This document shows positions 1,271-59,143 of a stretch of DNA of 64,000 nucleotides, piece after piece. The notes beneath the pieces are model-generated. The model was not told the DNA's origin and did not search any database. It worked only from the letters and a program-made list of their open reading frames with translations. Both the position numbers and the translations under genes were made by a program. The DNA is taken from NCBI GenBank assembly GCA_030645815.1, contig JAUSMW010000149.1, positions 22,510 to 86,509 of the forward strand, read 5' to 3'. The stretch's first letter is position 1. Each line of letters begins with the position of its first letter. The DNA is from Candidatus Saccharimonadota bacterium. Its GTDB lineage: Bacteria; Patescibacteriota; Saccharimonadia; Saccharimonadales; Saccharimonadaceae.

Positions 1271-1681
1271 TCATTTGGGCCAGCCTTTGGGGCAGAAGAT
1301 TGGGGCATCTTCTTTCGGATCAGCACAGATGCGGACAGTTTTACCTGTTTTGTACCGCACGATAGTGAAGACATGACCGGACTTGGAGTGCTTTTCCAGA
1401 GTGAAGCCATCCTTGGCGACATCTACGACAGTCACGTTGCTCGGTTTGCTGCACTTGCGAAAGTCAAGCAGCTGCTCTTTGCCGTCGTAGCAGCCGATAA
1501 GTGCTCTTTCGGCTTTCTCAAGTGCACCGGTTGCTCCGTTGTCGAAGGCCTTGTTCTCTCGTTTTGTAAATTCAGAGCTCACCATCATGACCAGGATTGC
1601 GATAATCAGAATGACCACCACCACCTCGGCCAGGTTAAAACCCTGCTCACTCTCTTTTAAATCTTTAAAGCGTTGGAGCAT
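1271..1681 (-). CDS. Type IV pilin-like protein (prepilin-type N-terminus)
   Basis: ...ESEQG|FNLAEVVVVILIIAILV has Gly-1, Phe+1 and Glu+5 followed by a hydrophobic helix. A C-terminal Cys-x10-Cys (CADPKEDAPIFC) sits where a pilin D-loop would. G+C is richer than in the neighbours. Confidence 0.7.
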   Translation of the reverse strand: MLQRFKDLKESEQGFNLAEVVVVILIIAILVMMVSSEFTKRENKAFDNGATGALEKAERALIGCYDGKEQLLDFRKCSKPSNVTVVDVAKDGFTLEKHSKSGHVFTIVRYKTGKTVRICADPKEDAPIFCPKGWPK

Positions 1682-2630: not shown

Positions 2631-3154
2631 GAAGATTTTTTTTCTGATTTCCCTAAAATGTCAAAACGCACAATACCGACAAGAACCGAAACCAATATAA
2701 ATAGCTCAGCAGCCGTACCAGCATAAGAGCCAACTACAAAATTATAGGTAAGCCACAAAGGTCGCGGAAGTAGCATGATAAATCTAATAGCCCTAGGATT
2801 AGTTTGCCAAACTGCAATTGTGCCAAATATTTGCGCCAAAACCGGCAGGTAATCTACCAAAGACTTTGCAGTTAGTGCACCAACAGCAATAAAAATTGCT
2901 ATAAAAAAATATGGCCAGAACCTTTTTTGCGCCCAAGTATCGGTTTCTTTCTTGTACGCAACAAATACAACCGCCGCCTCTATAAGGTTCATCAATGAAC
3001 CAGCCCATGCACCAAGTAGGGCGTAGTGGACAACAAACAAGAGTATACCTATTAGCATAAAGAAAAGGAGCTTTACGCGAGTATTATTCTGAAAGGAAAG
3101 GACTACAAATAAAAGCGCTAAATAGCCAACTCCTTGAATAAATATCTGGTCCAT
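2627..3154 (-). CDS. YgjV-family inner membrane protein
   Basis: 175 aa with about 5 TM segments and a YgjV-like repeat layout. There is a 4-nt overlap with the downstream phosphatase gene. Confidence 0.6.
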   Translation of the reverse strand: MDQIFIQGVGYLALLFVVLSFQNNTRVKLLFFMLIGILLFVVHYALLGAWAGSLMNLIEAAVVFVAYKKETDTWAQKRFWPYFFIAIFIAVGALTAKSLVDYLPVLAQIFGTIAVWQTNPRAIRFIMLLPRPLWLTYNFVVGSYAGTAAELFILVSVLVGIVRFDILGKSEKKSS

Positions 3155-3188
3155 ATATCTCCTTGTATCTAGATTAATACACTTGTCT

Positions 3189-3262
3189 TGGCTAGGGTGG
3201 AGGGATTCGAACCCCCGATCACGGGACCAGAACCCGTTGCCTTACCACTTGGCCACACCCTA
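3189..3262 (-). tRNA. tRNA-Gln (anticodon CTG), CCA encoded
   Basis: The reverse complement folds as a cloverleaf: acceptor TAGGGTG/CACCCTA, D arm GCC-AAGTGGTAA-GGC, anticodon stem ACGGG/CCCGT with loop TTCTGGT, T arm GGGGG-TTCGAAT-CCCTC, then G-CCA. Confidence 0.88.
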
Positions 3263-3321
3263 TCAGTCCAAGAAAAGTGTAGTAATAACCCTACTATTTT
3301 GCCAGATTACCTAGAAAAACT

Positions 3322-3879
3322 CTAGTCTTCTATGCCTTGTGCAACTCTCACTAGGTTTTGCACAACAATAACTTTTTCAATTTCATCATCACTGAGTTCG
3401 CAAAATTTTAGGATATCGTTAGTAGGTACCTTTGAGGCTTTTTGCAAGAATTCTACAAATTCTTGACCTTTTCTAGCGCCTAAATTTGTCTTGAAAAAAT
3501 GTATCGCTCGCTTGTAGTCATCATCTTTATGGCTGAGTTCTATTATTCGCAGTAAAGAACCGTCGTCGTCGATAGTGAATAAAAAACGTTGGCCTGTGTA
3601 CGGAGAATCATTGCCCGCTATCTGCTTTGAAAGCTCTGTATTTTTATCAAAACGTACGCCCACAAAGTAACGGTCATTCTTTGGTGTTTCGCCAAAGCTA
3701 AAGTGAACCTCTGGCAAGTGTTTTGAAAATGCCGAAGCTTCCTGGGGTTCATAGTAAAGAGTATTTTCGATGAATTCATCAAATTCACTCACGTACGCAG
3801 GCTCCTCACCTACAATAATACCAACATCGCTGCGCGGTTCGAGTTCTTCTAAAGCGGGACCTTTAACCTGTTTACTCAT
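3322..3879 (-). CDS. Hypothetical acidic protein
   Basis: A clean 185-aa ORF with no motif recognised. Confidence 0.5.
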   Translation of the reverse strand: MSKQVKGPALEELEPRSDVGIIVGEEPAYVSEFDEFIENTLYYEPQEASAFSKHLPEVHFSFGETPKNDRYFVGVRFDKNTELSKQIAGNDSPYTGQRFLFTIDDDGSLLRIIELSHKDDDYKRAIHFFKTNLGARKGQEFVEFLQKASKVPTNDILKFCELSDDEIEKVIVVQNLVRVAQGIED

Positions 3880-3976
3880 ATGCTCCTCAACCCACCACTT
3901 AACAGTTTAATTGTAGCAGACAATGACTTGATATTATACTGGGATAAATGCTAAGCTAAATATACATTAACAATTT

Positions 3977-4073
3977 AATATCAAGAGTGCAGCGAGGGAC
4001 CTAGCCCTATGACCTGCCAGCAACCCTTTTAGTTGGGTGCTACATCTAGTTCCGATTTTCGGAAACAGATATT
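3977..4073 (+). promoter_or_regulatory. SAM-I (S-box) riboswitch aptamer
   Basis: AATATC-AAGAG-TGCAGCGAGGGACCTAGCCCTATGACCTGCCAGCAACC...GGGTGCTACATCTAG-TTCCGATTTTCGGAA-ACA-GATATT. Conserved S-box blocks are AUCAAGAG, GAGGGA, GCCC, UGA, GCAACC and GGUGCUA. P1 is AATATC/GATATT, and the P4 hairpin is present. Confidence 0.85.
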
Positions 4074-4087
4074 TTATGAGTCACTTC

Positions 4088-4123
4088 AATATCCTTTCCG
4101 ACTATTGGTGAAAGGATATTTTT
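4088..4123 (+). terminator. Riboswitch expression platform: terminator that also sequesters the SD
   Basis: An 11-bp stem AATATCCTTTC (4088-4098) / GAAAGGATATT (4110-4120) with TTTTT at 4119-4123 abutting the ATG at 4124. The 3' arm contains AAGGA, the likely SD. The 3' P1 strand GATATT can alternatively pair with AATATC at 4088-4093 as an antiterminator. Confidence 0.75.
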
Positions 4124-4792
4124 ATGTCATTAGAAACACTATCAAAGCCAGAGGTCGATTTTACAGACTATGCGTTAGAACAAGTCAACACCGAGCTAGA
4201 GCACGCTAGCCCTCTAGAAATAGTACAGTGGGCCTATGAAACATTTGGTGATGATTTGATTGGGGCAACAAACTTTAGAGAGACTTCACCAGTCATGCTA
4301 GCGCTGATTAGTAAAATTAATCATGATATTCAGGTAGTCACTGTGCGCCTAGGGCACGAGTCCGAGAAAACCAAGACGCTCGCCAGATGGTACGAGGCGA
4401 CATTGGGCTTGAACCTAGCAATTCATGGCGATGATATTCAAATCGCCCATGGTGCAAAAGCCGTCAGTGATAGAAAAGCTGAGCTATTTCAACGGGAGGT
4501 AGTTGAGCGTTATAAACCCCAAGCCATTTTGTTCGGTTTAATGCGACAAGGCGAAACAGAAGGCAGAGAAAACATACCAATTATAGAGCGTAGAGATTCT
4601 TTTTTTGCCATAAACCCCGTTGCAAATGTTACGCCGCAAGATGTCGATGAGTTTTTCAGACTTTCTAGCTATCCAAGGAATAGAAACTACCATGATCCAG
4701 CAAAAGGCCCAGATCAAAAATCAGAGTGTGGGTTACATCGACCTAGGCCGAAGCAGAGTATTTCTGACCCCAGCTTGTCATCGCTTCGATAG
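4124..4792 (+). CDS. PAPS/APS reductase (CysH)-like protein, divergent
   Basis: C-terminal ECGLH motif (KSECGLH). It aligns by eye to E. coli CysH blocks, for example ILFGLMRQGETEGRENIPII against WFAGLRREQSGSRANLPVL. The N-terminal nucleotide-binding block is degenerate (ATNFRETSP). Confidence 0.6.
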   Translation: MSLETLSKPEVDFTDYALEQVNTELEHASPLEIVQWAYETFGDDLIGATNFRETSPVMLALISKINHDIQVVTVRLGHESEKTKTLARWYEATLGLNLAIHGDDIQIAHGAKAVSDRKAELFQREVVERYKPQAILFGLMRQGETEGRENIPIIERRDSFFAINPVANVTPQDVDEFFRLSSYPRNRNYHDPAKGPDQKSECGLHRPRPKQSISDPSLSSLR

Positions 4793-10860: not shown

Positions 10861-11730
10861 ATGAGTTCACAACAAACAAATAACCAGTCATCCCCAGTTA
10901 ATAAACCGTCGCAAGGCGATAATATTTTTGTCGTCAAACCAGAACCTAAAAAACCTGTTAACAAAAAAACTATATGGCTGACAATTATCTTGACGACACT
11001 TGGAATTTTGGTTCTTATTGCAGTTTTTTTCGCAGCAATAGTTGGTTCGGCTGGTAGCCTAGCTAATGATTATCGTAATTTGGCACACAAGCAAATTAAA
11101 AAATTAGATACACCGATAAAAAACATTGAACCTAGACTAGTTTTGAGCAATCGCAATATTGATTCGTCACTCAACACGATATATGTCAGCAGGCAATCCC
11201 AGCCTGCTCTAGAAAACACACTGTTTGTTGGCGGATGGAGCTCGCAATATGTCAAAGCCGAAAAGCTACAAGTATCAGTAAAAGCTCACTACAAATCGCT
11301 AGACACGTACACAGTACAGTTAGACAAGCTAATAAAATTTGATGATGGTGTAACCGCTATCATGCAACAAGAGCCTGGTCTAATAGCTAAAGCTAACCCG
11401 GACGATTCATTAAGTCTTCGCTCGGTTGGTGGCAGTTATCAAGATTTCGCAAGTCAAATAGAAAAGCTCGATAGTCCAGAACAATTAACTGCTATCAAAA
11501 AAGATTTAGTACAAACATACAAGAATCGTGCAACCATATACAAAAAATGGGCACTGGCTGTAGAGGCAGGTGATAAATCTACCACAGCAACTAACCAAGC
11601 CTTGCTGATAGAGCAAAATAACAAAGCTATCGTCTTGGTAACTGACAAAAAATACATCGCATTATTTACACCTAGCTACAAAAAAATACTCGTCACCCAA
11701 AAAGCACTCGAAACTGCCCTCTCAAACTGA
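10861..11730 (+). CDS. Membrane-anchored hypothetical protein
   Basis: 289 aa with one N-terminal TM (IWLTIILTTLGILVLIAVFFAAIV) and a helical extracytoplasmic part. Confidence 0.55.
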   Translation: MSSQQTNNQSSPVNKPSQGDNIFVVKPEPKKPVNKKTIWLTIILTTLGILVLIAVFFAAIVGSAGSLANDYRNLAHKQIKKLDTPIKNIEPRLVLSNRNIDSSLNTIYVSRQSQPALENTLFVGGWSSQYVKAEKLQVSVKAHYKSLDTYTVQLDKLIKFDDGVTAIMQQEPGLIAKANPDDSLSLRSVGGSYQDFASQIEKLDSPEQLTAIKKDLVQTYKNRATIYKKWALAVEAGDKSTTATNQALLIEQNNKAIVLVTDKKYIALFTPSYKKILVTQKALETALSN

Positions 11731-28254: not shown

Positions 28255-30264
28255 ATGTCAAAATTTTTACGAGATTTACTAGATGCCGAAGAACCTATCT
28301 TTAGCCTCAGTCTACGTGACCTAGAAAAGGCCAGTGGTCATCAAGCTGTCGATGTAAAATTGATTGCCGATATTACCCGCGAAACACACGCTGCAACCAA
28401 AGAGTTGGGGTTGGATCATAAAAATACAACAGGCAAAGAACTCTATCAGGCACTTTTAGCACGAATAGCAGCCGACAACGAACGCGTCACCAAGCTTATT
28501 GGGGGTCATGATTCTGATGATGTTCGTCACATTGTACCGTTTTTGGTTGATGCCGCAAACAAAGTAAAGTTCAACCGCAAAGTTTTTGTACTCAAGCATG
28601 ACAAGGCAAAAGATTTGCTACGTCAAATGCCACCACAAAAACTAATGGAGCGCTTGGGCTACAAAGACATAGAAGATTTATTTAATGGTGAGAATTTCTC
28701 GGAAATGTACACAGCGCTACGTTTTTCAGAAGGCCCTGATTGGTTGAACGAATATGACGAGTTATTTAAATCAGTTACGGCTAGCGATTACGAAGAGCGT
28801 GATATTGAAATAGTTGTAATGGACCATGACAAATACGTTGATTTGGCCGAGCATTTTGTTGAAAAAAAGTTACACAATGTCACACACACAAAAGAGCTCG
28901 GCGTTATCGTCGTCGTCCCTATGAAGGCCGAGCGCGTCAAAGGTCTGACACTCAAGACATTACCGCTGTTATTTCACTATATGAACGAAGTGAAATTATA
29001 TTCGACATTCTTTAAATTAAAATCCAAAACATCAAAACATTTTGGTGAAACTGTTATGGAGACGTTGATTGCCGACCCAGGTAAAGCAGCACAAATGGCA
29101 GGGCAACATGTGCATTGGCGAGTTATTCAACGCTATTTCGGTAAATTAAAAGACGAATCACACTTAGAGGCATTCGAGCCGCATGTTCAACCAGAAGATT
29201 TACATTGGCGCCGTGCCGAGAGTCTACTATATGAACTCGACCCAGAGATGTCATTTTGGAAAAACCGAGATTGGGTCGGTATGGACTTTGACGGACGTCC
29301 AGTGACACTTAACTTTGTAGATGTAGCCTTGAGCTATTCAAATAACATTAGTTACCAAGACCGCTATGTGTATCACTTTCGTGAGAGTCTATGGAACGAA
29401 CTGTTCGCTCGTTACATGGGCATGCCAAATCTAGAACACCAAATACTACGGCAACTCGATAACGATATGATTGTGCCTGAAAAGCTCAGTGTGGGTAAAA
29501 AAAAACTAGCTAAACCCATGGGGCTCAAAAAAGCTCCATATGATGCAAAGGCACTGATTGAGCAAAACAAGCTAAAACACCTGCTGGTTCGGGAAAAGTT
29601 GGTCGATGCCGCTGCTGGCAAATTGATTGGTGTTATTGACGAGTTTGAAAAAGCCTTTGAGGTGTTAGGTAAATATCCTAGAACTGTTAGTGTATTTGGC
29701 TCGGCTAGATTGTCGCAAGATGACCCTGCCTGCAAAGCTGCGTATGAATTGACCAAAAAAATTGCCCAGGAAGATTATGCGATAGTCACGGGTGGCGGAC
29801 ACGGTATTATGGAGGCAGCTAATCATGCCGCATACGATGTTGGCAATGGCTCCGTTGGTTTGAATATTGAGCTACCAACTGAACAGAGCCTCAACCCATA
29901 TACGACTGACCATTATACATTCGAACATTTTTTTAGCCGCAAGGTAGCACTGACATTCGACGCCAGTGGTTATGTATTTTGCGCTGGCGGTTTCGGAACA
30001 TTAGATGAATTGTTCGAGATAACTACGCTTGCGCAAACTGGTATCATACCCAAAGCTCCAATCATTTTGTATGGTAGCGATTTCTGGAATCCATTGGCAG
30101 ACTATATACAACAAACGTTAAACAAAAAATTCAAAACTATCGGCCCCGACGATCCTGATTTACATATCATCACCGACGACCCGTTGGAAATAATAGCTTA
30201 TATCGAAGCTTATGAAAACGGTCGGCCTACCTTTACGAACTACTCGAGCATACATCCGTTATAA
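28255..30264 (+). CDS. LOG-family (TIGR00730-type) nucleotide phosphoribohydrolase fused to a ~450-aa uncharacterised N-terminal domain
   Basis: The C-terminal ~200 aa carry [16 protein letters not shown] and [12 protein letters not shown] (the PGGxGTxxE motif). No motif recognised in the N-terminal 450 aa. Confidence 0.75.
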
Positions 30265-37319: not shown

Positions 37320-40300
37320 GTGAGTAAGCAAACAGTTTCGTTACAGCCGTCTGATTATGTGCACCTACATAACCACACGCACCACAGCTTGCTCGATGGC
37401 ATGACTAAAATTGACGCCCTGGTAGAGCGTGTCAAAATGATGGGTATGGAAGCGGTGGCTATGACTGACCACGGAACGCTCTCTGGAACAATTGATTTTT
37501 ATAAGGCCTGTAAGGGTGAGGGCATCAAACCAATCATCGGCATGGAAGCCTATGTTGCCGCCCGAAAACATACTGACAAAGAAGCTCAACATGATAAAGC
37601 TCGCTATCACCTCATCATTTTAGCGATGAATAACAAGGGTTACGAAAACTTGATGCGGCTTTCTACCATAGCTAACCTAGATGGCTTGTACTATAAACCC
37701 CGCATAGACCATGACCTGCTAGAAAAGTATAACGAGGGACTCATTATCCTCAGCGGCTGTGCCAGTGGCGAAGTAGGCGAATCACTCAAAAACGGCAACT
37801 ACGAACCTGCTAAAAAAATCGCTAGTTGGTATAAAAAAATATTTGGTGACCGATATTACCTAGAAATCCAAGACCATGGTGACTGGGAAGACCAGTTAAA
37901 AATTAACGAAGGTGTCGAGAGGTTATCTAAAGAGCTAGACATCCCTCGCGTATTAACCGGTGACGCCCATTATCTCAACAAGGATGATGCACCAGCTCAC
38001 GAAATATTACTATGCGTTGGTACAAACGCCTATTTGTCTGACAAAAACCGCATGAGCCTGGATGGTTTTCATCTGCATGTTCGTGACCCGAACGAAATTA
38101 TAGAAAAGTGGGGCGACCAGCCAGAGCTCATCACAACTAGCAAAGCCATCGCTGATCGCTGTGATGTTGAAATTGAACTAGGTAGTATATTGATTCCTAC
38201 CTTTCCTACACCACCAAAAGAAACCGAAAAAAGCTATCTGCAAAAACTCGTCTATCAAGGCTTGGCATGGCGTTATGGCAACACCGAGCGTAAAAAAGCC
38301 TTACAGTTGACTATTGCAGAGGCAAAAAAGAATTTGCCAGAAGACGTGCTAGAACGAGCAAAGTTTGAGCTCAGCGTTATTGATAATATGGGTTTTAACG
38401 GGTACTTTTTGATTGTCCAAGATTTTATCAACTGGGGCAAAGACCGTGGCATTATCTTTGGTCCAGGTCGTGGTAGTGCTGCTGGCTCTATCATCTCGTA
38501 CGCCCTCAATACCACCGACCTAGACCCTATTCATTATGATTTGCTGTTCGAGAGGTTTCTCAACCCTGACCGTATATCAATGCCTGATATTGATATCGAT
38601 ATCCAGGACACGCGTCGTGATGAAGTAATCCAATATTGTATCGACAAGTACGGTCATGACCGTGTCGCGAATATTGTTACTTTTGGTACCATGGCTGCTC
38701 GTGCGGCAGTTCGTGATGTAGCACGTGTACTAGAAGTGCCATATGCAGAGGCAGACCACTTGGCAAAGATGATCCCACCGCCAGTCCAGGGGCGGCATAT
38801 CCCACTAGCAAAAAGCATTCAGGATGATGCTGATTTAAAAAACGAATACGAAACTAACGAACGAGCTCATGAAGTCATTGATTTTGCATCCAGGTTGGAA
38901 GGGACTATTCGCTCGCACGGTGTGCATGCCGCCGGAGTCGTGATTGCACCTGATGATTTGGTAAAATTCGCACCACTGGAAATGGCACAAAAAGGAGTCA
39001 TATCGACGCAGTATCCAATGTTTCCGATTGAAGATTTAGGCCTACTAAAGATGGATTTTTTGGGGTTATCTAACTTGACCACAATCAACAACGCAATGCG
39101 AATCATCAAAAAGGTCTACAAAGTCGACATTGATTTAAACACACTGAAACTAGATGACAAAAAAACATACGAGTTATTCCAACGCGGGGACACAACGGGG
39201 GTATTTCAGCTAGAATCGGCCGGTATGAAACGCTATCTCAAACAATTAAAACCAAGTGTTTTTGATGACATCATTGCTATGGTGGCATTGTACCGACCAG
39301 GCCCGATGCAGTTTATCGACAGCTTTATCAAGCGAAAACATGGTAAAGAAAAGATTAGCTATCTGCACCCGAAAATGGAAAATGCACTATCAAACACGTA
39401 TGGGATTTTAGTATATCAAGAGCAGTTTATGCAGATATCTAAAGACCTCGCCGGTTTTACTGGTGGTCAGGCTGATACCCTACGTAAAGCAGTCGGTAAA
39501 AAGATTATGACAATGATGAAAAAAATCAAACCAGAGTTCGTCGAAGGTGCAATCAAACACAGCGGTGCAGATCGTAAAACTATGGAGTTATTTTGGGACC
39601 AGCTAGAAGAGTTCGCCAACTATTGTTTCAACAAATCTCACGCCGCGTGTTACGCATTGATTTCATACTGGACAGCATACCTAAAGGCTCACTTTCCAGA
39701 CGCGTTTATGGCGGCGCTTATGACTAGTGATCAGGGGGATATTGACCGTCTAGCAATTGAAATCGCCGAGGCGCAACATATGGGTCTAAAAGTCCTTTCA
39801 CCAGATATCAATCTCAGTTTCGTCGAGTTTTCTGTAGTGCCAGGTGAAAATGAAATCCGCTTTGGTCTCGCCGCTGTCAAAGGTGTTGGTGTAGGTGCAG
39901 TTGAGGCAATATTGTTAGCACGAGAAGACGGACCATTCACTTCACCAGAAGATTTCGCAAAACGCGTGCCATCTAACAAGGTCAACCGTCGAGTTTGGGA
40001 ATCATTAGTAAAATCAGGTGCTTTCGATTCCATGGGTGATCGTTCCGACCTGTTGTTTAATATGGACCTTATCTTGGCGTTTGCTTCAAAGCTGCAAAAA
40101 GACGCTCTGTCTGGCCAAACTGATTTGTTTGCTGGACTAGGCGAAGCTGCTGCTGATATTGCGCCTAGTTTGGACCTAAAGCCTGCTCCAACCAAACACA
40201 CCGAAAAAGAACGCCTGACATGGGAGCGTGAACTCCTCGGCCTATACCTCAGCTCGCATCCACTTGACCCGTATTCTGTCTATCTAAATGAGCAGACCGT

Positions 40301-40937
40301 TCCACTGGACCAAGTAACCATTGAGGCAGACGGCAAGTCATTAACAGTTGGCGGTATCATCAGTACAGTCAGGGCTATAACAACCAAAAATGGCAGCAAA
40401 ATGGCATTTCTCAAACTAGAAGATAAATTTGGTGAAACTGAAATTATTATTTTTCCAAAGTTATACCAAGAAATTGGTGAACAGTTATTGCAAGACACAG
40501 TTATCAGGGTCAACGGCCGCGTTAATGCACGAAACCAAGCTGGCAACATACAAGATGAAGCCAAAGTTGTCGTCGATAAAATTATCATTGTCTCTCAACA
40601 AGAGCTCGACAACTACAAACCGACGGGTGAGCAACAAAAAGTCCCCGAAGGTAAAAAATCGCCTAAAGGTGTCAAGAAATCAGCAGCTGTCGCAGAAATC
40701 CCAGAGGAAAGCAAAGTTAAAACCATATACATTCATGTCAAAGACACAAACGATCATGAGAGTTTACGTGAAATGAAAAAAGAACTCAGCAGCACTCCTG
40801 GTGAAAATCACGTTATATTAGTTCTAGGTGAAGACAAATCCAACGCAATTAGGTTGCCATTTACCACACAAATATCCGACAGGCTCATTGCAAGCATACA
40901 AAGTTTGTACGGTCCTGACCAAGTGGTTGTTAAATAG
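37320..40937 (+). CDS. dnaE: DNA polymerase III alpha subunit
   Basis: 1205 aa. PHP domain (HLHNHTHHSLLDG), polymerase core (...PDIDIDI...GVHAAGVVI...), HhH and OB domains. GTG start. Confidence 0.95.
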   Translation: MSKQTVSLQPSDYVHLHNHTHHSLLDGMTKIDALVERVKMMGMEAVAMTDHGTLSGTIDFYKACKGEGIKPIIGMEAYVAARKHTDKEAQHDKARYHLIILAMNNKGYENLMRLSTIANLDGLYYKPRIDHDLLEKYNEGLIILSGCASGEVGESLKNGNYEPAKKIASWYKKIFGDRYYLEIQDHGDWEDQLKINEGVERLSKELDIPRVLTGDAHYLNKDDAPAHEILLCVGTNAYLSDKNRMSLDGFHLHVRDPNEIIEKWGDQPELITTSKAIADRCDVEIELGSILIPTFPTPPKETEKSYLQKLVYQGLAWRYGNTERKKALQLTIAEAKKNLPEDVLERAKFELSVIDNMGFNGYFLIVQDFINWGKDRGIIFGPGRGSAAGSIISYALNTTDLDPIHYDLLFERFLNPDRISMPDIDIDIQDTRRDEVIQYCIDKYGHDRVANIVTFGTMAARAAVRDVARVLEVPYAEADHLAKMIPPPVQGRHIPLAKSIQDDADLKNEYETNERAHEVIDFASRLEGTIRSHGVHAAGVVIAPDDLVKFAPLEMAQKGVISTQYPMFPIEDLGLLKMDFLGLSNLTTINNAMRIIKKVYKVDIDLNTLKLDDKKTYELFQRGDTTGVFQLESAGMKRYLKQLKPSVFDDIIAMVALYRPGPMQFIDSFIKRKHGKEKISYLHPKMENALSNTYGILVYQEQFMQISKDLAGFTGGQADTLRKAVGKKIMTMMKKIKPEFVEGAIKHSGADRKTMELFWDQLEEFANYCFNKSHAACYALISYWTAYLKAHFPDAFMAALMTSDQGDIDRLAIEIAEAQHMGLKVLSPDINLSFVEFSVVPGENEIRFGLAAVKGVGVGAVEAILLAREDGPFTSPEDFAKRVPSNKVNRRVWESLVKSGAFDSMGDRSDLLFNMDLILAFASKLQKDALSGQTDLFAGLGEAAADIAPSLDLKPAPTKHTEKERLTWERELLGLYLSSHPLDPYSVYLNEQTVPLDQVTIEADGKSLTVGGIISTVRAITTKNGSKMAFLKLEDKFGETEIIIFPKLYQEIGEQLLQDTVIRVNGRVNARNQAGNIQDEAKVVVDKIIIVSQQELDNYKPTGEQQKVPEGKKSPKGVKKSAAVAEIPEESKVKTIYIHVKDTNDHESLREMKKELSSTPGENHVILVLGEDKSNAIRLPFTTQISDRLIASIQSLYGPDQVVVK

Positions 40938-40965: not shown

Positions 40966-42411
40966 ATGGCACATATAGCTAGCCTGATGAGGGATAGGAT
41001 TTTTGGTAGATGGTCACAGGCCGTCCTAATAGCCTTGATTTTATTGGGCGTGGTCACGGTTAGTTTATACACAAATAATTTATCTTCGTTACACAAATCA
41101 GGTAGCGAGACATACAGCTCCGTAAAATCTTTTGGGGCAGCGTTTACTGTAAACCGTACATACACGTCTAAAAATAATGTCATAGTTAACAACCTATGGC
41201 GCCCATCTGTACAACTATCGGGCGGAGGCTCTCATAACTGTGCGCTATCAAATGGCAATATATATTGCTGGGGAAGAGGAGGTGATGGACAACTTGGCAA
41301 TAATGGTACTGCTGACAGCATTACGCCAATCCCAGTAGTAAAGGGTACGTCAGATATATTTAATGGTCAACGGATGACTCAGATATCAGGTGGTCAGAGT
41401 CATATGTGCGCGGTTAACAGTGGTCTAGTTGCTTGTTGGGGTAAAAATACTAATGGCCAATTGGGTCGTGCCTCTGGTAATACAACTAGTTCTTCTGTTC
41501 CTGTTCAGGTAGCAACTCTTGGTCCCACCCTGATAACCAATCAGATATCTGCTGGTGGACAAAGTACATGTGCTGTTGTAGCTAATAATGCACTCTGTTG
41601 GGGGGATAACTCCAAAGGTCAGCTTGGTGACGGTACCACTACTATGCGCACCATACCTCCGCCACCAACTGGTACACCTCAGCGTTCCGTAGCACCTAAA
41701 GCTACAGCTTCTGGGGATGCGCTATACGACAAGTATATTTCCCAGGTTCAAGTGGGGGGCTTGTTTGCCTGTGCAATCGCTAATGGAGAAGTATATTGTT
41801 GGGGTGACAATACCTATGGTCAGCTAGGTAATAGTGCGGGTGGTGCTGGTGTTACCAGTACGGTTCCTGTACCAGTAACCAAAGCATCAGGTGTATTGCT
41901 AGGTAAAACCGTGACACAAATAGCTACAGGCTACGACTACGCTTGTGCGATTGCGGACGGACAAGCTTATTGCTGGGGACGTAATACCTATGGTCAGTTA
42001 GGCCGTGCAGCTGGCAACACTACAGATAGTAATGTACCTATAGCGGTAAAAGCAGATACAGGTACGGATGCGCTCAACGGCAAGACGGTTACCAATATAT
42101 CTAGTGGTGGTTCTGGCCATACCTGCGCCATAGCGGACAGTAAAGCTTATTGCTGGGGTCGTAACGACTACGGACAGCTTGGGAATGGCAACAGCCCTAC
42201 AAACTCAGGTGTGCCAGTTGACGTTAGCCTAGCTGGAGTACTAAGTGGTAAAACTGCGACGCAGCTAGTAGGTGGCGAATTGTATACGTGTGCGATAGCA
42301 AATGGTCGTGCTTATTGCTGGGGTCGTAACGACTACGGACAGCTAGGCACCAACAATTCTGCGCAAACTAGCGTAAATGTACCGTATAGGGTGAACGATT
42401 CATATTATTAA
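40966..42411 (+). CDS. RCC1-repeat (seven-bladed beta-propeller) protein with an N-terminal signal anchor
   Basis: Seven repeats of CA[LIV]x3-5[YAL]CWGxNxxGQLG, for example CALSNGNIYCWGRGGDGQLG ... CAIANGRAYCWGRNDYGQLG. N-terminal TM AVLIALILLGVVTVSLY. Confidence 0.8.
   Translation: MAHIASLMRDRIFGRWSQAVLIALILLGVVTVSLYTNNLSSLHKSGSETYSSVKSFGAAFTVNRTYTSKNNVIVNNLWRPSVQLSGGGSHNCALSNGNIYCWGRGGDGQLGNNGTADSITPIPVVKGTSDIFNGQRMTQISGGQSHMCAVNSGLVACWGKNTNGQLGRASGNTTSSSVPVQVATLGPTLITNQISAGGQSTCAVVANNALCWGDNSKGQLGDGTTTMRTIPPPPTGTPQRSVAPKATASGDALYDKYISQVQVGGLFACAIANGEVYCWGDNTYGQLGNSAGGAGVTSTVPVPVTKASGVLLGKTVTQIATGYDYACAIADGQAYCWGRNTYGQLGRAAGNTTDSNVPIAVKADTGTDALNGKTVTNISSGGSGHTCAIADSKAYCWGRNDYGQLGNGNSPTNSGVPVDVSLAGVLSGKTATQLVGGELYTCAIANGRAYCWGRNDYGQLGTNNSAQTSVNVPYRVNDSYY
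42145..42179 (+). repeat. 35-nt perfect direct repeat, copy 1 (inside an RCC1 gene)
   Basis: GCTTATTGCTGGGGTCGTAACGACTACGGACAGCT is identical to 42310-42344. Confidence 0.9.
42310..42344 (+). repeat. 35-nt perfect direct repeat, copy 2
   Basis: Identical to 42145-42179. It encodes AYCWGRNDYGQL in adjacent blades. Confidence 0.9.
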
Positions 42412-42413
42412 GG

Positions 42414-44261
42414 ATGTATGAGATGAAAATATTTTATAACAAAAAAACAGACAGCAACGGATTCGTTCTACCAACAGTCCTTGTGCTGTCAGTTGTGTTA
42501 CTGACACTTGGACTCTCTGTATTTCAATTGACGTCTAGCATCGCTAGGTCATTAACTGACCAATATTGGCAACGTCTGGCTAAACAAACCTCGCAGGCGG
42601 GCGTGTCGTATGTGTCTGCCTGTGTTGATCAGGGTCTTAGCCCTAGTACTTGGCCAACGCTCATAACCCAAGACACGACATGCCTCGGAGGCTCGCTCTC
42701 TACCTCGGTGCCGACTGTTCATTCTAACTATACAGACAAAAACCCAGGTACTGGAACCTTATGTACTCCAAACCCTACCACTTGTAGCCCAGACACTACG
42801 CCATCTCCATACAAGACTACCTTTACCGTAAAACGGCCAGAAATTGGCGCAGATAGTATTGCCAAGGCTCGCATAGTTGGCAAGGTAGAGTTTCAAAGCT
42901 CTGCTCAAAAGGACATTACTGGTAAATATATTGTGTCAAACGGTATATTACTGAGAAATACAGTACGAACATACACATACGAAACAGTGATTATCGTTAA
43001 CGGTCCTACACAGGCATTCACGCAGATTAGTGCTGGTAAAAAGCACGTCTGTGCGCTGACTGATGGTCGTGTATATTGCTGGGGCTCAAATGCTGCTAAT
43101 CCATTTGCTATTAGCCCTGATACTACTGACAATACCATCACAGGCCAACTAGGTATTGGTTCATCTGCCATTAATGTCAACAAGCCAAGTCTTGTCGGGG
43201 GTTTACTGGCTAGCAAGTTCGTAACTTCTATCTCTAGCGGGTCTAACTTTACATGTGCTATAGCCAACGGAGCAGTTTACTGCTGGGGTGCAAACAATAT
43301 GGGCCAATTGGGAAATGGAAACAACACTACCAGCAACGTACCAGTAGCTGTTAAAGCAGATACAGGCACGCTAGCAGGTAAAAGGGTTACAGATATTTCG
43401 GCCGGTCAAGATTTTGCCTGTGCCCTATCAAACGGAGCAGTTTACTGCTGGGGTAATGGCGCAAGTGGTCAGCACGGTAACGGTACAAACAATACTACTA
43501 ATATTCCTGATGCAGCGGTATCGACTATCGGCAGAGTCAGTGCTATTTCAGCTGGAGCAAGTCATATCTGTGCAGTTGACGGAGGTGTGGCTGAAGCCGG
43601 CGCAGGCTATTGCTGGGGGAATGGCACTAATGGACAGCTAGGTGATGGTGCTACCAGTTCTCGAACAAGTCCTGTAAAAGTCTACAATACTGGAGTGCCT
43701 AGCGGAACGCCATCTGGTCGGTATGTTAAAAAAATATACGCAAACAAGAGCTATACTTGTGCATTAGCCTATGGAGCTGAACCATACTGCTGGGGTTACA
43801 ATAGTAATGGTCAGCTTGGTAATAACTCGACTACTCAGCAAACTATCACTTCACCTGTAACCACTAATATTGTTGTATCAACTCCCCCTCCTGTTACCAA
43901 TGTCGTAGGTTTAATGACAGACATGACATCTTCTTCTTCAGCCGAGTATCATACCTGCGCCCTTGCAAATGGTAATGCTTTTTGTTGGGGTAAAAATGAC
44001 AGGGGCCAGATTGGTAATAATTCTACTACTCAGGCACTTTACCCTAGAGCTGTGGATACATCGGGTCTATTGCCTACAGACAGGACTATCACCGCTATTA
44101 CCACGGGAGGTGATTTTACTTGCGCGTTGGCCGAAGGGCAGCCTTATTGTTGGGGAAGCGGGGTAGCCGGTCAGCTTGGTAATGGTGTTGACAACACTTC
44201 ATGCGGATGTACTAACTCTCAAAACCTTGTACCAAAGAAAACGATTAATACTTATCAGTAA
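42414..44261 (+). CDS. RCC1-repeat beta-propeller protein with a PilX/minor-pilin-like N-terminus
   Basis: N-terminus ...SNGFVLPTVLVLSVVLLTLGLSVFQL...AKQTSQAGVSYVSA resembles PilX_N. Seven CWG..GQLG blades follow a ~190-aa linker domain. The ATG at 42423 (AAGGA 9 nt upstream) is an alternative start. Confidence 0.78.
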   Translation: MYEMKIFYNKKTDSNGFVLPTVLVLSVVLLTLGLSVFQLTSSIARSLTDQYWQRLAKQTSQAGVSYVSACVDQGLSPSTWPTLITQDTTCLGGSLSTSVPTVHSNYTDKNPGTGTLCTPNPTTCSPDTTPSPYKTTFTVKRPEIGADSIAKARIVGKVEFQSSAQKDITGKYIVSNGILLRNTVRTYTYETVIIVNGPTQAFTQISAGKKHVCALTDGRVYCWGSNAANPFAISPDTTDNTITGQLGIGSSAINVNKPSLVGGLLASKFVTSISSGSNFTCAIANGAVYCWGANNMGQLGNGNNTTSNVPVAVKADTGTLAGKRVTDISAGQDFACALSNGAVYCWGNGASGQHGNGTNNTTNIPDAAVSTIGRVSAISAGASHICAVDGGVAEAGAGYCWGNGTNGQLGDGATSSRTSPVKVYNTGVPSGTPSGRYVKKIYANKSYTCALAYGAEPYCWGYNSNGQLGNNSTTQQTITSPVTTNIVVSTPPPVTNVVGLMTDMTSSSSAEYHTCALANGNAFCWGKNDRGQIGNNSTTQALYPRAVDTSGLLPTDRTITAITTGGDFTCALAEGQPYCWGSGVAGQLGNGVDNTSCGCTNSQNLVPKKTINTYQ

Positions 44262-44752
44262 TTTAACGCGTATAGGGCTATACCCGCTGCAACGCTGACG
44301 TTGAAAGATTCTTTTTGTCCGCGCATAGGTATTTCTATCAATGTGTCACAGTGTTTTTGTATCTCTGCGGGTATTCCCTGCACCTCTTCGCCTAGTATCA
44401 GCATAATTTTTGCGGGTGGTTGAAAATCGGGCAATTGAACTGCTGTTTCACCTTGTTCTAAACCAATGATGCTATAGCCATGGGCTTTGAACGCATCAAT
44501 TGTGCTGGTGATATTAGTAACGTGGGTAAAAGGTACCGTCTTTTCTGCACCTAGTGCGGTCTTTGAAATATCTGATGATACTCGTTCCGCAACGTGCGGC
44601 AACCGGGTGTCATCTGGTATTGCAGGATACGGCGAATACCCACTAATGTATAAATGCTCAACACCCAGACCGTCACAAGTACGAAAAATCGAGCCGATAT
44701 TGTGGCTAGAACGAATATTGTGTGCAACAACTGATATCTGAGGGCTTGTCAT
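44255..44752 (-). CDS. TrmH/SpoU-family RNA 2'-O-methyltransferase
   Basis: ...HNIRSSHNIGSIFRTCDGLGV...LILGEEVQGIP...IEIPMRGQKESFNVSVAAGIALY. There is a 7-nt convergent overlap with the RCC1 gene. Confidence 0.85.
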   Translation of the reverse strand: MTSPQISVVAHNIRSSHNIGSIFRTCDGLGVEHLYISGYSPYPAIPDDTRLPHVAERVSSDISKTALGAEKTVPFTHVTNITSTIDAFKAHGYSIIGLEQGETAVQLPDFQPPAKIMLILGEEVQGIPAEIQKHCDTLIEIPMRGQKESFNVSVAAGIALYALNY

Positions 44753-44799: not shown

Positions 44800-46431
44800 A
44801 TGGATACAAATGACAAACAAGCTATTCGCTTTCGCGAGACGGATGAAAGTGCTACCCAGAAACGGGCAGCACTGATTGGCTTGGATTATCTAGACACTCG
44901 CGGTATATCTGACGCGGGACCGTTACTAGATGGCGTGCTCACGATAGAGCAAATGTATCAGGGCAAGCTAATACCTCTAAAAAAAGGTAGTGACCGCGAA
45001 CCATATATGTATGGTGTGACTAGCGATACACCGCAATCTCTGACCCAAAAATTACATGCAGACTGGGCCGAAAAAGGCATTAATACAAAATTCTTGTTGA
45101 TTAGCAAAGCCGGGTACCGCGAGTTTATGCAACGATACGACCCACCAAAAGAGGTGGTGTACGATGATGTCGAAATAGCCAAAGAAGGTGATAGTGACAC
45201 AATCGATGCGGTATCAAAAACATTAGACACAGTACGAACTGATGACATTTTAGATTATTTGATTGACCAGGCAGATAACCTGGGTGCCAGTGATATTCAT
45301 ATCGAAAACCAGCGCGAGAACGTTCGTATCCGTTTTCGTGTTGACGGTGCATTGCACTCGGTTGCAAACCTAACCCACGAAAAATACCGAATACTCAAGG
45401 CATCACTAGCTACCAAAGCTAACATTTCAACAGCCAGCAATGACGCACAGAGTGGTAGCATGCAAAAAGCAGTGCCAGCGCGTGGTGATATTGCAGAGCA
45501 CTTTCTAAATATGCGTATCGAGACAGTACCAACCGTCTATGGCCAAGATGTTGTGATTCGTTTGTTTAACTTTGACGAAACTTTACTAGACCTGGCAAAA
45601 ATTGGCGTAAATGAACGCGAATTGGCGCAAATAAATGAGATTGTGTCTCATCCGCGCGGTATGGTCCTGATGGTTGGTCCAACAGGTTCTGGTAAATCGA
45701 CAACCTTGTACAGTATGATAAATGCCCTAAATACACCAGACCGCAAGATATTGACGCTAGAAGACCCAGTCGAGTTTCGTATACCAGGTGTCAGTCAAAT
45801 TCCTGTTAACACTGGCGGCGGACAAACCTTCGCTGAAAAGCTACGCGCGGTGCTTCGTCTAGACCCAGATATTGTGATGGTAGGTGAAATTCGTGACAAT
45901 GACACCGCTCGTACAACTATACAGGCAGCTATCACGGGCCACTTGGTACTTTCAACTTTTCATGCCGAGACCGCCAGTGCGGCATTCTCGCGCATGATTG
46001 ATATGATTGGTATAAATCCAATCTTTTCGACAGCTATTCGTTTGGTTATTGGGCAACGGTTGGTCCGAAAGCTAGATGATAACAAAGAATCTTATACTGC
46101 GGACGAAGCTACTAGCAAATGGATACGTGAAGTTTTGAGTGATTTGCCAGCGAACATAGAAAAGCCAAATGTCGATGGTGACATAACATTATATAAACCA
46201 GTCGTCAGCCAGGAAAATCCTTTTGGTTACAAAGGTCGTGTTGTATTGATGGAACAGTTGGTTGTTGATGAGGAAATCCAAAAATTCCTACGTGGCGAAT
46301 TGGCTGATGCTCACGCAGAGACCATAGAAAAAGTCGCTAAACAACAAGGAATGGTGACAATGATTCAGTCTGGAATATTGCGCGCACTTGCGGGCGAGAC
46401 TACGCTAGAGGAAATCCACAGAGTACTATAG
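44800..46431 (+). CDS. pilB: Type IV pilus / type II secretion assembly ATPase (PilB/GspE family)
   Basis: N-terminal T2SSE_N-like domain. ...ASDIHIE...RFRVDG..., Walker A GPTGSGKST, and Asp/His boxes (...VGEIRD...GHLVLSTFH). Confidence 0.9.
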   Translation: MDTNDKQAIRFRETDESATQKRAALIGLDYLDTRGISDAGPLLDGVLTIEQMYQGKLIPLKKGSDREPYMYGVTSDTPQSLTQKLHADWAEKGINTKFLLISKAGYREFMQRYDPPKEVVYDDVEIAKEGDSDTIDAVSKTLDTVRTDDILDYLIDQADNLGASDIHIENQRENVRIRFRVDGALHSVANLTHEKYRILKASLATKANISTASNDAQSGSMQKAVPARGDIAEHFLNMRIETVPTVYGQDVVIRLFNFDETLLDLAKIGVNERELAQINEIVSHPRGMVLMVGPTGSGKSTTLYSMINALNTPDRKILTLEDPVEFRIPGVSQIPVNTGGGQTFAEKLRAVLRLDPDIVMVGEIRDNDTARTTIQAAITGHLVLSTFHAETASAAFSRMIDMIGINPIFSTAIRLVIGQRLVRKLDDNKESYTADEATSKWIREVLSDLPANIEKPNVDGDITLYKPVVSQENPFGYKGRVVLMEQLVVDEEIQKFLRGELADAHAETIEKVAKQQGMVTMIQSGILRALAGETTLEEIHRVL

Positions 46432-46764
46432 CTATCTTTTGCCGACTAATGTAGGAGTTTGTTGCAATAAAGCGCTTCTAGCAACCGCAATCAACTGTTC
46501 ATCGCTATACAATGAACGATTCGATTCAAAATCTACAGGCTGATTTAGGCCATTTAAAGGATAGACACAAAATCCGTCTGGGATATTGCTCAGAAACATT
46601 GTTGAAAAAATTTCTGTATCGATGACCTTGCCACTTGCAAGCGTTACACGAACACCATAATTTGCTTCACTATTATCCAAGACAGCATCATCGGTTGCTT
46701 CAAATACGGCGTCCTCGAGCAATGATTCATTTACTCTTCGTCTCTCTCTGTCCATGCGTCTCAT
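46432..46764 (-). CDS. Hypothetical protein downstream of malic enzyme
   Basis: 110 aa with no motif recognised. Its stop abuts the convergent pilB stop. Confidence 0.45.
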   Translation of the reverse strand: MRRMDRERRRVNESLLEDAVFEATDDAVLDNSEANYGVRVTLASGKVIDTEIFSTMFLSNIPDGFCVYPLNGLNQPVDFESNRSLYSDEQLIAVARSALLQQTPTLVGKR

Positions 46765-48593: not shown

Positions 48594-48648
48594 TAAAAAA
48601 AGAGACCTCCCCCGGGCAGCACCAATGAATGGTGGCCCGGGGTGGTCT
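48594..48648 (-). terminator. G+C-rich terminator of the 56-aa micro-ORF
   Basis: AGACCTCCCCCGGGC (48603-48617) pairs with GCCCGGGGTGGTCT (48635-48648), and there is an inner CACCA/TGGTG stem. On the minus strand TCTCTTTTTTT follows. Confidence 0.6.
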
Positions 48649-48736
48649 GTGTGCCGTGAGGTTTCTTGGGCGGCTATTAGCTAGCCGGTATGAGCCAAGT
48701 TCTCACAGCGCGGGGAAACGCGGCGACGGGTCAGGG

Positions 48737-48907
48737 TCAGTCAGGCGCGAAGCCGAGCTGGTCCGAGATGTCGTCGTGTGCGGCCGGCTTGTGGCCAAGG
48801 ATGCCGCCGGTGGCGGCCGAGCTGTCAGTTCCGAATACCTGGTCGGAGTTCGACGAGCCGACAGGTGTGCCGTGTGCCGCGGCGAGAGTGATGATGGTCG
48901 TCTTCAT
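48737..48907 (-). CDS. Unannotated 56-aa micro-ORF (MKTTIITLAAAHGTPVGSSNSDQVFGTDSSAATGGILGHKPAAHDDISDQLGFAPD)
   Basis: The ATG is preceded by AGAAGAAGG. Codons are strongly G/C-ending, and a hand count gives 41/60 G+C at 48721-48780. It has its own promoter-like boxes and terminator, and there is an in-frame TAG upstream. It is below the 60-aa ORF-track cutoff. Confidence 0.45.
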   Translation of the reverse strand: MKTTIITLAAAHGTPVGSSNSDQVFGTDSSAATGGILGHKPAAHDDISDQLGFAPD

Positions 48908-48977
48908 GTAGAGGTAACCTTCTTCTCTTCGATTGCGTTTGGTTGTGCATATCAGACGGGTGTCTGGTATGAGGATA

Positions 48978-49007
48978 ATAATAACATAATACTAAAAAAC
49001 TTGTCAA
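48978..49007 (-). promoter_or_regulatory. Candidate promoter for the 56-aa micro-ORF
   Basis: On the minus strand: TTGACA (49007-49002), N18, TATTAT (48983-48978). A second TTGACA lies 12 nt further upstream (49019-49014). Confidence 0.4.
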
Positions 49008-49058
49008 TACTTTTGTCAAACTATTTCTGGGTATGAAAAAAGACGAGAGGGACCTTGT

Positions 49059-58156: not shown

Positions 58157-59143
58157 GTGCAGTCAAAACATATAACCTCTCTTATAACAACAATGCTTAT
58201 CCTAGCTGGATTTCTTTTGCTTGCACTCAACTATCAGAACATTATTGACCAGTTTGTGGTTGCACAGGTCTACAAACCCAGCCAAGAAGTAAACCAAGTT
58301 GCGGATCAAATACAATTTACCGAAAAAGGCAAATTCCTGTTCCTTGCAGCGCAACCCGAACTCAATAGTCGAGACACTTTTAACAAGCATTGCGAGAAAA
58401 AAGTAGAGCAGACTGTAGTCCTAGGTTGTTATATCGGCCCTCAGCACATGTATATATATAATGTAACCGACCCACGTTTGGCAGGTGTTAGACAGGTTAC
58501 AGCGGCTCATGAGATGTTACACGGCGCCTATGATAGGCTTTCGTATATCGAGAAAAAGAACGTCAACAAAATGATTGAAGCTGCCTTGCCCAGCGTGCAA
58601 AAAGCTAACCCAGAATTAGCCGAGCGCTTAAAGATATATGACAAAACCGAACCAGGCGAGCGCAATAACGAACTACACTCTATACTAGGCACAGAGTCAG
58701 CCAATTTGCCGACCGACCTAGAAGATTACTACAAGCAGTATTTTATTAACAGAAGTATTATTACTACGTTTGCATCACAATATGACAAAATATTTAACGA
58801 TGTCAAAAACCAGCAAAACCAACTTGTTGCTCAACTCGACGCACTCGCAACCGAAATCAATACATTAACTGAGCAATACAATGCCGATACCACAAAGCTT
58901 AATAGTGATATTGATGATTTCAACAATCGTGCTGACATGCAGGGCTCATTTGCTTCGCAATCAGAATTTAATACAGCTAGGGCAGAGTTAGTATCACGCC
59001 ATGCAGCATTGAGTGATCAAAAAGATTTAATTGACGCCAAAATTGCCTCGTACGAAGCTATGCGCACACAACTAGAAGACCTCAATATCAAGGTGAAAGA
59101 TTTAAATTCAAAGGTCGATAGCACCAGCGTGCCAAGCCTGTAG
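58157..59143 (+). CDS. Membrane-anchored protein with an HExxH motif and a long C-terminal coiled coil
   Basis: GTG start 1 nt after the clpC stop. TM LITTMLILAGFLLLAL, the motif AAHEMLHGAY, and Q/N/D/L-rich heptad-like C-terminal ~120 aa. Confidence 0.55.
   Translation: MQSKHITSLITTMLILAGFLLLALNYQNIIDQFVVAQVYKPSQEVNQVADQIQFTEKGKFLFLAAQPELNSRDTFNKHCEKKVEQTVVLGCYIGPQHMYIYNVTDPRLAGVRQVTAAHEMLHGAYDRLSYIEKKNVNKMIEAALPSVQKANPELAERLKIYDKTEPGERNNELHSILGTESANLPTDLEDYYKQYFINRSIITTFASQYDKIFNDVKNQQNQLVAQLDALATEINTLTEQYNADTTKLNSDIDDFNNRADMQGSFASQSEFNTARAELVSRHAALSDQKDLIDAKIASYEAMRTQLEDLNIKVKDLNSKVDSTSVPSL

Follow-up and report, generated by a model that had tools for sequence, protein, structure and literature searches.

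A PilX2-type candidate minor pilin with an RCC1 propeller, and its membrane-anchored paralogue, in a Candidatus Saccharimonadota genome

How the ultrasmall epibionts of the Patescibacteria recognize their hosts is largely unknown, and the only pilus-associated candidate adhesin that has genetic support so far is a putative minor pilin with an RCC1 propeller, PilX2 of Nanosynbacter lyticus TM7x, reported by Grossman et al. (bioRxiv 2024, PMC11623550; ISME J 2025, PMC12206443). The subject of this work is a pair of adjacent open reading frames (ORFs), ORF1 and ORF2, which encode proteins with RCC1 propellers and are found in a stretch of 64,000 nt, hereafter the window, from a Candidatus Saccharimonadota bacterium (assembly GCA_030645815.1, contig JAUSMW010000149.1, positions 22,510 to 86,509 of the forward strand); coordinates are those of the window unless another locus is named.

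PilX2 has a lollipop architecture, with a non-canonical signal peptide and a hepta-bladed RCC1 β-propeller, and its gene sits in a locus of five pilin genes together with that of the major pilin, pilA2 (PMC12206443). Regarding its function, deletion of pilX2 halves the binding of TM7x to its host, like the deletions of pilA2, pilB2, and pilC2, it impairs the competition with other Saccharibacteria, and it alters the number, diameter, and length of the pili; thin pili still assemble in TM7x without PilX2, which its authors propose as the adhesin of the thin type IV pilus, T4P-2 (PMC12206443).

An earlier note, made from the letters of the window alone, had described ORF1 and ORF2 as tandem RCC1-repeat proteins and had stated that no characterized RCC1 propeller displayed on a type IV pilus was known to its author. 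This statement is superseded by PilX2, described and mutated in 2024/2025 (PMC11623550, PMC12206443): with it, a type IV pilus protein bearing RCC1 is already on record, and ORF2 is a divergent further member. What is new is the pairing with an anchored paralogue of the ORF1 type, the high conservation of one helix, and the existence of a large family in which the N-terminal module of ORF2 (N-module) is joined to swapped heads. The pair and the parts of ORF2 are arranged as follows:

40966..42411, + strand: ORF1, 481 aa; membrane anchor, then RCC1 propeller
42423..44261, + strand: ORF2, 612 aa if counted from the likely start and 615 aa with the ATG at 42414; candidate minor pilin of the PilX2 type with an RCC1 propeller
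42423..42461, + strand: ORF2 leader, MKIFYNKKTDSNG; short, basic, ending at the conserved Gly(-1), with a putative G|FVLPT site
42462..42629, + strand: ORF2 alpha1 helix; membrane span and the LAKQ..QAGVSY..AC segment
42630..43013, + strand: ORF2 globular head; antiparallel β-sheet, two invariant Cys, and a lineage-specific loop rich in Cys, Pro, and Thr
43014..44258, + strand: ORF2 propeller; seven-bladed, RCC1-like, presumed ligand-binding domain

As for the beginning of ORF2, the frame of 615 aa exists as the earlier note had it, but the second ATG, at 42423, is the likelier start and gives 612 aa: it has AAGGA, a Shine-Dalgarno-like sequence, 8 nt upstream, and it agrees with the NCBI model (612 aa) and with all the orthologues, which begin MKIF. 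The protein is identical to the hypothetical protein Q7T74_04680 of a Candidatus Saccharibacteria metagenome-assembled genome (MAG).

For the comparison with the TM7x protein, pilX2 was located by using the published deletion primers as exact DNA patterns, and the locus was recovered from three TM7x-like MAGs. In locus L009, primer Up_R overlaps the ATG of an ORF of 583 aa (3018-4769) and primer Dwn_F begins one base past its stop; since the published primers flank it, this ORF is pilX2. It is flanked by four canonical pilin genes, pilA2 among them, whose products have the sites GYTLIE, GFTIVE, GFTITE, and GFTLVE. BLASTP of ORF2 against this PilX2 gave an E of 2e-41 and 26 % identity, with a collinear alignment over residues 10-614, and the profile of the N-module matched residues 1-170 of PilX2 with an hhalign probability of 99.5 % (E 1.5e-22); because of these two alignments, ORF2 is judged from its sequence to be a distant full-length homologue of PilX2.

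Both proteins are from Saccharibacteria, and they are alike in the short leader, the junction of a Gly and an aromatic residue without Glu5, the long helix, the small β-sheet head with its signature AEAG..Y..AC..W...C.G, and the seven-bladed RCC1 propeller. As for the differences, the junction reads GYSLVL in PilX2 of TM7x and GF(A/V)LPT in the consensus of the ORF2 family, and the head of ORF2, unlike that of PilX2, bears lineage-specific loops. The genomic setting differs too: pilX2 belongs to the five-pilin cluster with pilA2, whereas pilin genes are absent from the surroundings of ORF2, placed between dnaE and spoU/pilB; moreover, ORF2 adjoins a conserved membrane-anchored RCC1 paralogue, and the 8-kb TM7x-type locus L009 is without one.

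Regarding the N-module, ORF2 has a single hydrophobic segment, at its N-terminus, which reads MKIFYNKKTDSNG|FVLPTVLVLSVVLLTLGLSVF: a short basic leader that ends in Gly is followed by about 20 hydrophobic residues. The motif G[FY]xLP, placed after a short basic leader, is present in 143 of the 147 family representatives inspected; at least 90 % conservation is seen across the N-module family at Gly(-1), Phe(+1), Leu(+3), and Pro(+4), the last of which is invariant. Position +5 is Thr in ORF2 and in 114 of 143 relatives, and V, A, S, I, or M in the others; it is never Glu. In an alignment of 66 sequences, the residues L19, P20, G63, C70, and C90 are invariant, and the AlphaFold2 model of the N-module obtained with this alignment had a predicted local distance difference test (pLDDT) value of 83 and a predicted template modelling (pTM) score of 0.70; it presents a continuous helix at residues 19-72, numbered from M1, with a pLDDT >90, which spans 15-69 in the full-length model of ORF2, and strands at 133-140, 150-164, and 181-194, so that the whole resembles a helix-on-sheet "lollipop".

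The region between the helix and the propeller, which the earlier note had assigned within a linker of ~190 aa rich in Cys, Pro, and Thr, is instead predicted to be a folded pilin head, with the 55-residue helix packed on the β-sheet; the Cys/Pro/Thr-rich part is just a loop at residues ~100-130 (615-aa numbering), with a pLDDT below 55 in the N-module model. The head is 125 aa long in ORF2 compared with 91-103 aa in the orthologues; the Cys/Pro/Thr-rich stretch is found in the ORF2 lineage only, as is a second insertion.

As for the propellers, the seven RCC1 copies that had been counted in each protein, enough for a complete propeller, were recovered in full. Pfam found seven RCC1 stretches, scoring above the family cut-offs, both in ORF1, with 212 bits for RCC1 (PF00415, E 1e-63) and 250 bits for WD40_RLD (PF25390), and in ORF2, with 198 bits (E 2.9e-59) and 221 bits, respectively; likewise, a regular expression for CA..G..YCWG..GQLG returned exactly seven copies per protein. 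The full-length AlphaFold2 model of ORF2 (pLDDT 81, pTM 0.71) has an all-β domain at residues 201-606, which in this model is a closed seven-bladed fold of the RCC1-like type: its best Foldseek match is UVR8, with a template modelling (TM) score of 0.91 and an E of 4e-36, and the next ones are the RCC1-like domains of HERC2, RPGR, and RCC1. Gly, Ala, Ser, and Thr together make up 42 % of both ORF1 and ORF2, versus 25-27 % of the cytoplasmic proteins PilB and DnaE. A cytoplasmic role, similar to that of RCC1 as a guanine nucleotide exchange factor, was considered and ruled out by the N-terminal membrane helix, the 42 % content in these four residues, and the conserved cysteines.

BLIP-II is an RCC1-like protein that inhibits β-lactamase, and the two propellers might be exported inhibitors or enzymes directed against host or competitor molecules, with no relation to attachment. 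We consider this very improbable: no catalytic or inhibitor family was matched by ORF1 or ORF2, both begin with a membrane helix rather than with a secretion signal whose cleavage site is evident, and the genetics of PilX2 point to binding.

The C-terminal tails of the two proteins are conserved as well. That of ORF2 (44178-44240) has the sequence VPKKTIN(S/T)Y preceded by C-x-C, kept in the six closest orthologues, while the more distant ones end in PIKSINTF or similar; in the ORF1-type proteins, the conserved end is PYRVNDSYY (42382-42408). These tails probably form the last propeller strand. A special docking peptide was evaluated for PYRVNDSYY and VPKKTINTY and rejected, as both are what the last strand of an RCC1 repeat usually looks like.

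Because of the pilin-like N-terminus and of the full-length homology with PilX2, a pilus-associated adhesin is the best reading of ORF2. We give a probability of about 60 % to ORF2 being a PilX2-type minor pilin of the Saccharibacteria type IV pilus, with the propeller facing outwards and probably binding a glycan. After insertion of the protein in the membrane, the short basic leader would end at the conserved Gly-Phe site, where PilD may cleave it, and the helix of ~55 residues and the small β-sheet head would form a pilin-like lollipop bearing the propeller at its C-terminus. The absence of Glu5, a feature in common with the tip pilins PilX, PilK, and GspK, suits a subunit that primes the filament or occupies its top, as ORF2 would, rather than one that polymerizes along the shaft. 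From there, the variable propeller could tether the epibiont to the host cell, probably via a glycan.

Several results weigh against this assignment, and some of them are also arguments for a different one, in which ORF1 and ORF2 are ordinary surface lectins or adhesins held by an uncleaved N-terminal membrane helix, and not parts of a pilus. The N-terminus of ORF2, described in the earlier note as PilX-like, is pilin-like and homologous to that of PilX2, but it has no match to the Pfam family of that name: PilX_N, N_methyl, and ComGG were not matched at E <= 10 by ORF2, by its first 200 residues, or by its first 75, the NCBIfam scan of ORF2 gave no pilin family, and PilX_N was reached by just 2 of 89 N-module relatives, weakly (best E ~7e-4). 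The likeness to canonical pilins is weak, as the N-module profile aligned with ten of them with an hhalign probability of 22 %, over 24 columns, in register at G|F. As for the structural searches, no solved pilin was found by Foldseek with the N-module against the PDB (no match at E <= 0.001, best E 0.08), a comparison weakened by the usual absence of the N-terminal helix from solved pilins; the matches were weak ones to levivirus coat and miscellaneous proteins, with type II secretion system entries at E ~0.8-1, and the PDB sequence-profile search with the N-module gave chance-level matches only. Regarding the gene context, no pilin, pilC, pilM, or pilD gene is near ORF1/ORF2 in the window, the distant N-module genes have housekeeping surroundings, and the pair and pilB are not in one transcription unit, the adjacency of pilB being general synteny. 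Finally, ORF1 has a simple anchor only, ORF2 is devoid of Glu5, the thin pili of TM7x form without PilX2, SignalP called no PilD site in PilX2, and the presence of PilX2 in the pilus itself is inferred from phenotypes (PMC12206443).

The evidence for a pilin fold of the N-module is thus indirect. Even so, surface proteins with a plain anchor appear to us possible and, on balance, unlikely, since neither a Gly-Phe junction conserved behind a short basic leader nor a 60-residue stretch with 85-95 % identity, half of it outside the membrane, is needed for an anchor; in addition, the predicted helix-on-sheet head suits a pilin better, pilX2 stands among canonical pilin genes, and the phenotype of its deletion equals those of ΔpilA2, ΔpilB2, and ΔpilC2.

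The three parts of ORF2 are conserved to different degrees in 14 orthologues: identity to ORF2 is 85-95 % for the helix (60 residues, from G|F to ACVDQGL), 51-60 % for the head, and 40-69 % for the propeller. A conserved helix combined with a variable propeller is expected if the former contacts a conserved machinery or the filament core, and the latter keeps up with variable ligands.

As for the extent of the family, an exhaustive HMMER search with residues 1-200 of ORF2 returned 484 cluster representatives at E <= 0.001; a word-indexed homologue search gave no matches with the N-terminal 200 aa of ORF2, and two only with the N-module profile. RCC1 is found in 51 of 89 N-module relatives, and others among them carry ricin-B lectin, LamG, CBM_4_9, fibrinogen-C, fn3, or Gly-rich domains. 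The relatives of residues 1-200 numbered P0121-P0268 range from 90 to 1300 aa; their C-terminal domains, unrelated to one another, include ricin-B lectin, Laminin_G_3, CBM_4_9, fibrinogen-C, fn3, Gly_rich_2, and DUF6476, and some of the short ones consist of the module alone.

These data bear on the proposal that ORF2 mainly primes pilus assembly, in the style of GspK/PilK with PilY1, the propeller having a structural or regulatory role; adhesion would still be compatible with it. The missing Glu5 is common to priming and tip pilins, tip complexes of the PilK family license assembly (PMC13533445), and the loss of PilX2 changes the number, diameter, and length of the TM7x pili. We hold priming as the main role to be improbable, as thin pili assemble without PilX2, the propeller is far less conserved than the helix across the orthologues (40-69 % versus 85-95 %), and its replacement by unrelated lectin-like domains in the relatives is unexpected for a conserved structural role.

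Fusions of RCC1 with prepilins of the canonical type occur too: N_methyl prepilins fused to double RCC1 propellers are P0040, P0046, P0069, and P0087, and P0040 adjoins a small pilin sharing its N-terminal domain. In locus L011 (5463-8634), a canonical prepilin (KKG|FTIVEL) with a double RCC1 propeller (890 aa) is directly followed by a pilin of 133 aa, whose first ~90 residues are closely similar to the N-terminus of its 890-aa neighbour.

ORF1, the other member of the pair, has 481 aa and the N-terminal anchor helix recognized in the earlier note: a single hydrophobic segment was found, N-terminal, and it corresponds to a single-pass anchor at residues ~16-38 (nt 41011-41079). Beyond it, from residue 64 on, come RTYTSKNNVIVNN, a short conserved strand, and then the propeller. 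BLASTP of ORF1 against ORF2 gave an E of 6e-62 and 36 % identity, and the alignment starts where residue 64 of ORF1 (RTYTSKNNVIVNN) meets residue 182 of ORF2 (RTYTYETVIIVNG), in the last strand of the pilin head; what precedes residue 64 in ORF1, and the corresponding part of its orthologues, is only a plain membrane helix, and a conserved Gly-Phe site is absent. On this alignment, ORF1 is paralogous to ORF2, but it lacks the pilin module and is anchored in the membrane instead. The earlier proposal of pilus-associated adhesins of an epibiont is accordingly retained as the best reading for ORF2 but not for ORF1, a plain membrane-anchored paralogue that is not pilin-like. With the last head strand and the propeller still present, and a plain anchor in place of the pilin helix and head, ORF1 would display its propeller directly on the cell membrane, possibly for close-range contact.

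The pair recurs in relatives, and ORF1-type and ORF2-type genes are adjacent in all of L002-L006 and L010. The order dnaE, ORF1-type, ORF2-type, spoU (on the minus strand), pilB, and malic enzyme gene is kept in L002, L004, and L005, and parts of the window arrangement are found in L003, L006, and L010; the segment with the ORF2-type gene, the convergent spoU, and pilB is kept in L002, L004, L005, and L010. In the more distant locus L012 (10001-16353), four RCC1 genes in a row make two successive pairs, in each of which the N-module RCC1 protein (565 and 601 aa) comes first and the membrane-anchored one (438 and 471 aa) second, the reverse of the window order.

A broader proposal can be built on the pairing and on the family: the GFxLPT N-module would mark a widespread tip-pilin scaffold with exchanged lectin-like heads, and in the clade of the window ORF2 and ORF1 would form a two-step host-recognition module. 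In this scheme, the pilus tip with ORF2 would act as a long-range tether, the docking of the cell body, to an identical or related host glycan, would be left to ORF1 as the second step, and the pair of variable propellers would help to set the host range. We advance it as a quite doubtful extension of the minor pilin assignment.

The genes around the pair, and a second pilin-related gene of the window, are the following:

37320-40937: dnaE, upstream of ORF1
44255-44752, - strand: gene of a SpoU-family 2'-O-methyltransferase (Pfam E 4e-35), between ORF2 and pilB
44800..46431, + strand: gene of an assembly ATPase of the PilB/GspE type (Pfam T2SSE, E 5e-90)
1271..1681, - strand: prepilin-like orphan gene, EQG|FNLAEVVVV..., with Glu at +5; 40 kb from the ORF1/ORF2 pair

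The earlier note had placed the pair 540 nt upstream of pilB. This interval holds the opposite-strand spoU gene, which is convergent with ORF2, with a 7-nt overlap between its 3' end and the stop codon of ORF2, and therefore pilB is outside the transcription unit of the pair; a single operon of ORF1, ORF2, and pilB was ruled out on this ground. The adjacency of pilB carries little weight, because it is inside a broadly conserved synteny. The pilB product matches both GspE and PilB in NCBIfam, each under the equivalog cut-off, and 3' of the gene there are a small ORF and then the malic enzyme gene on the minus strand. Among the more distant members, the N-module gene of L013 is between a YjbR-type gene and dnaG/sigma-70, a weak N_methyl protein is encoded ~6 kb from the N-module gene in L014, and none is in L012; linkage of the N-module genes to type IV pilus genes is not general. 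In the window, no PilD gene was found, and no pilin gene is within 40 kb of ORF2, which does not have the pilin-cluster context that PilX2 shares with PilA2. Scans for promoters and terminators performed no better than on shuffled sequence.

The prepilin-type gene at 1271-1681 (-), the only other pilus-related gene of the window, was noticed earlier and does show the canonical EQG|FNLAE motif; it had no Pfam match at E <= 0.001, is far from any pilus assembly gene, and has a tRNA-Gln gene, 3189-3262 (-), in its vicinity. The remaining genes of the window are of the housekeeping kind and include those for glycolysis, the pentose-phosphate pathway, UvrB, GatCAB, PheST, RelA, NusA, a ClpB-type ATPase, RadA, and PBP1, among others.

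Other features of the window are unrelated to the pair. A SAM (S-box) riboswitch is at 3975-4075 (+), just upstream of the ORF 4124-4792, with 59 bits for Rfam RF00162 (gathering score 44.4). The gene at 28255-30264 (+) encodes a protein of 669 aa, the sole family match of which, of the LOG/Lysine_decarbox type, is in the C-terminal ~190 residues, while the N-terminal ~470 residues had no Pfam match. No convincing Pfam family was found for the ORFs 46432-46764 (-), 48629-49036 (+), 58157-59143 (+), and 10861-11730 (+), which have housekeeping surroundings; the first of them is unannotated in the syntenic locus L005 too.

With regard to its meaning, the locus reveals no new kind of system, and it sets up a testable hypothesis of two adhesins. 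The PilX2 design extends beyond the oral Nanosynbacter, in a family of 484 representatives with a conserved helix and fast-changing or swapped heads, and a membrane-anchored paralogue accompanies it in one environmental clade. Candidate host-recognition proteins of uncultivated lineages could be searched for with the N-module as a handle.

Besides PilX2, several known systems resemble ORF2 in part. The tip pilins and pseudopilins PilX, PilK, and GspK have, like ORF2, a short leader, a hydrophobic helix, no Glu5, and an ..AEAG.. segment past the membrane span, and the proposed position at the tip, or in priming, is in common; the absence of Glu5 in PilX and GspK is documented (PMC7541494). Unlike them, ORF2 has no significant match to PilX_N (PF14341) and no sequence or fold match to their PDB entries, and it has a propeller, which neither GspK nor PilX carries.

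The PilY1/PilC tip adhesins of type IVa pili are similar to ORF2 in having a seven-bladed β-propeller at the pilus tip that is implicated in adhesion, and PilY1 acts together with a minor pilin lacking Glu5. PilY1 differs in that it is not a pilin, has a type I signal, and belongs to a propeller family of its own rather than to RCC1; it docks in trans, by β-strand addition through its C-terminal strand (PMC13533445), whereas ORF2 carries its propeller in cis, on the C-terminal side of the pilin module. ORF2 would then join in a single chain a tip pilin similar to GspK/PilX and a propeller adhesin similar to PilY1.

As for the repeats, the Cys-containing CA..G..YCWG..GQLG unit of ORF1 and ORF2 is found in the bacterial surface proteins annotated as "alpha-tubulin suppressor-like RCC1 family", which gave thousands of matches, often with fn3 or other surface modules; most of these proteins are double propellers of ~1000 aa without a pilin-like N-module. 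The grafting of an adhesive module on a pilin has a further parallel in Streptococcus sanguinis, where PilB and PilC are said to be modular pilins with an adhesive or lectin module at the C-terminus, as in ORF2; unlike ORF2, they are reportedly canonical class III pilins with Glu5, and their grafts, vWA and lectin domains, are of other types.

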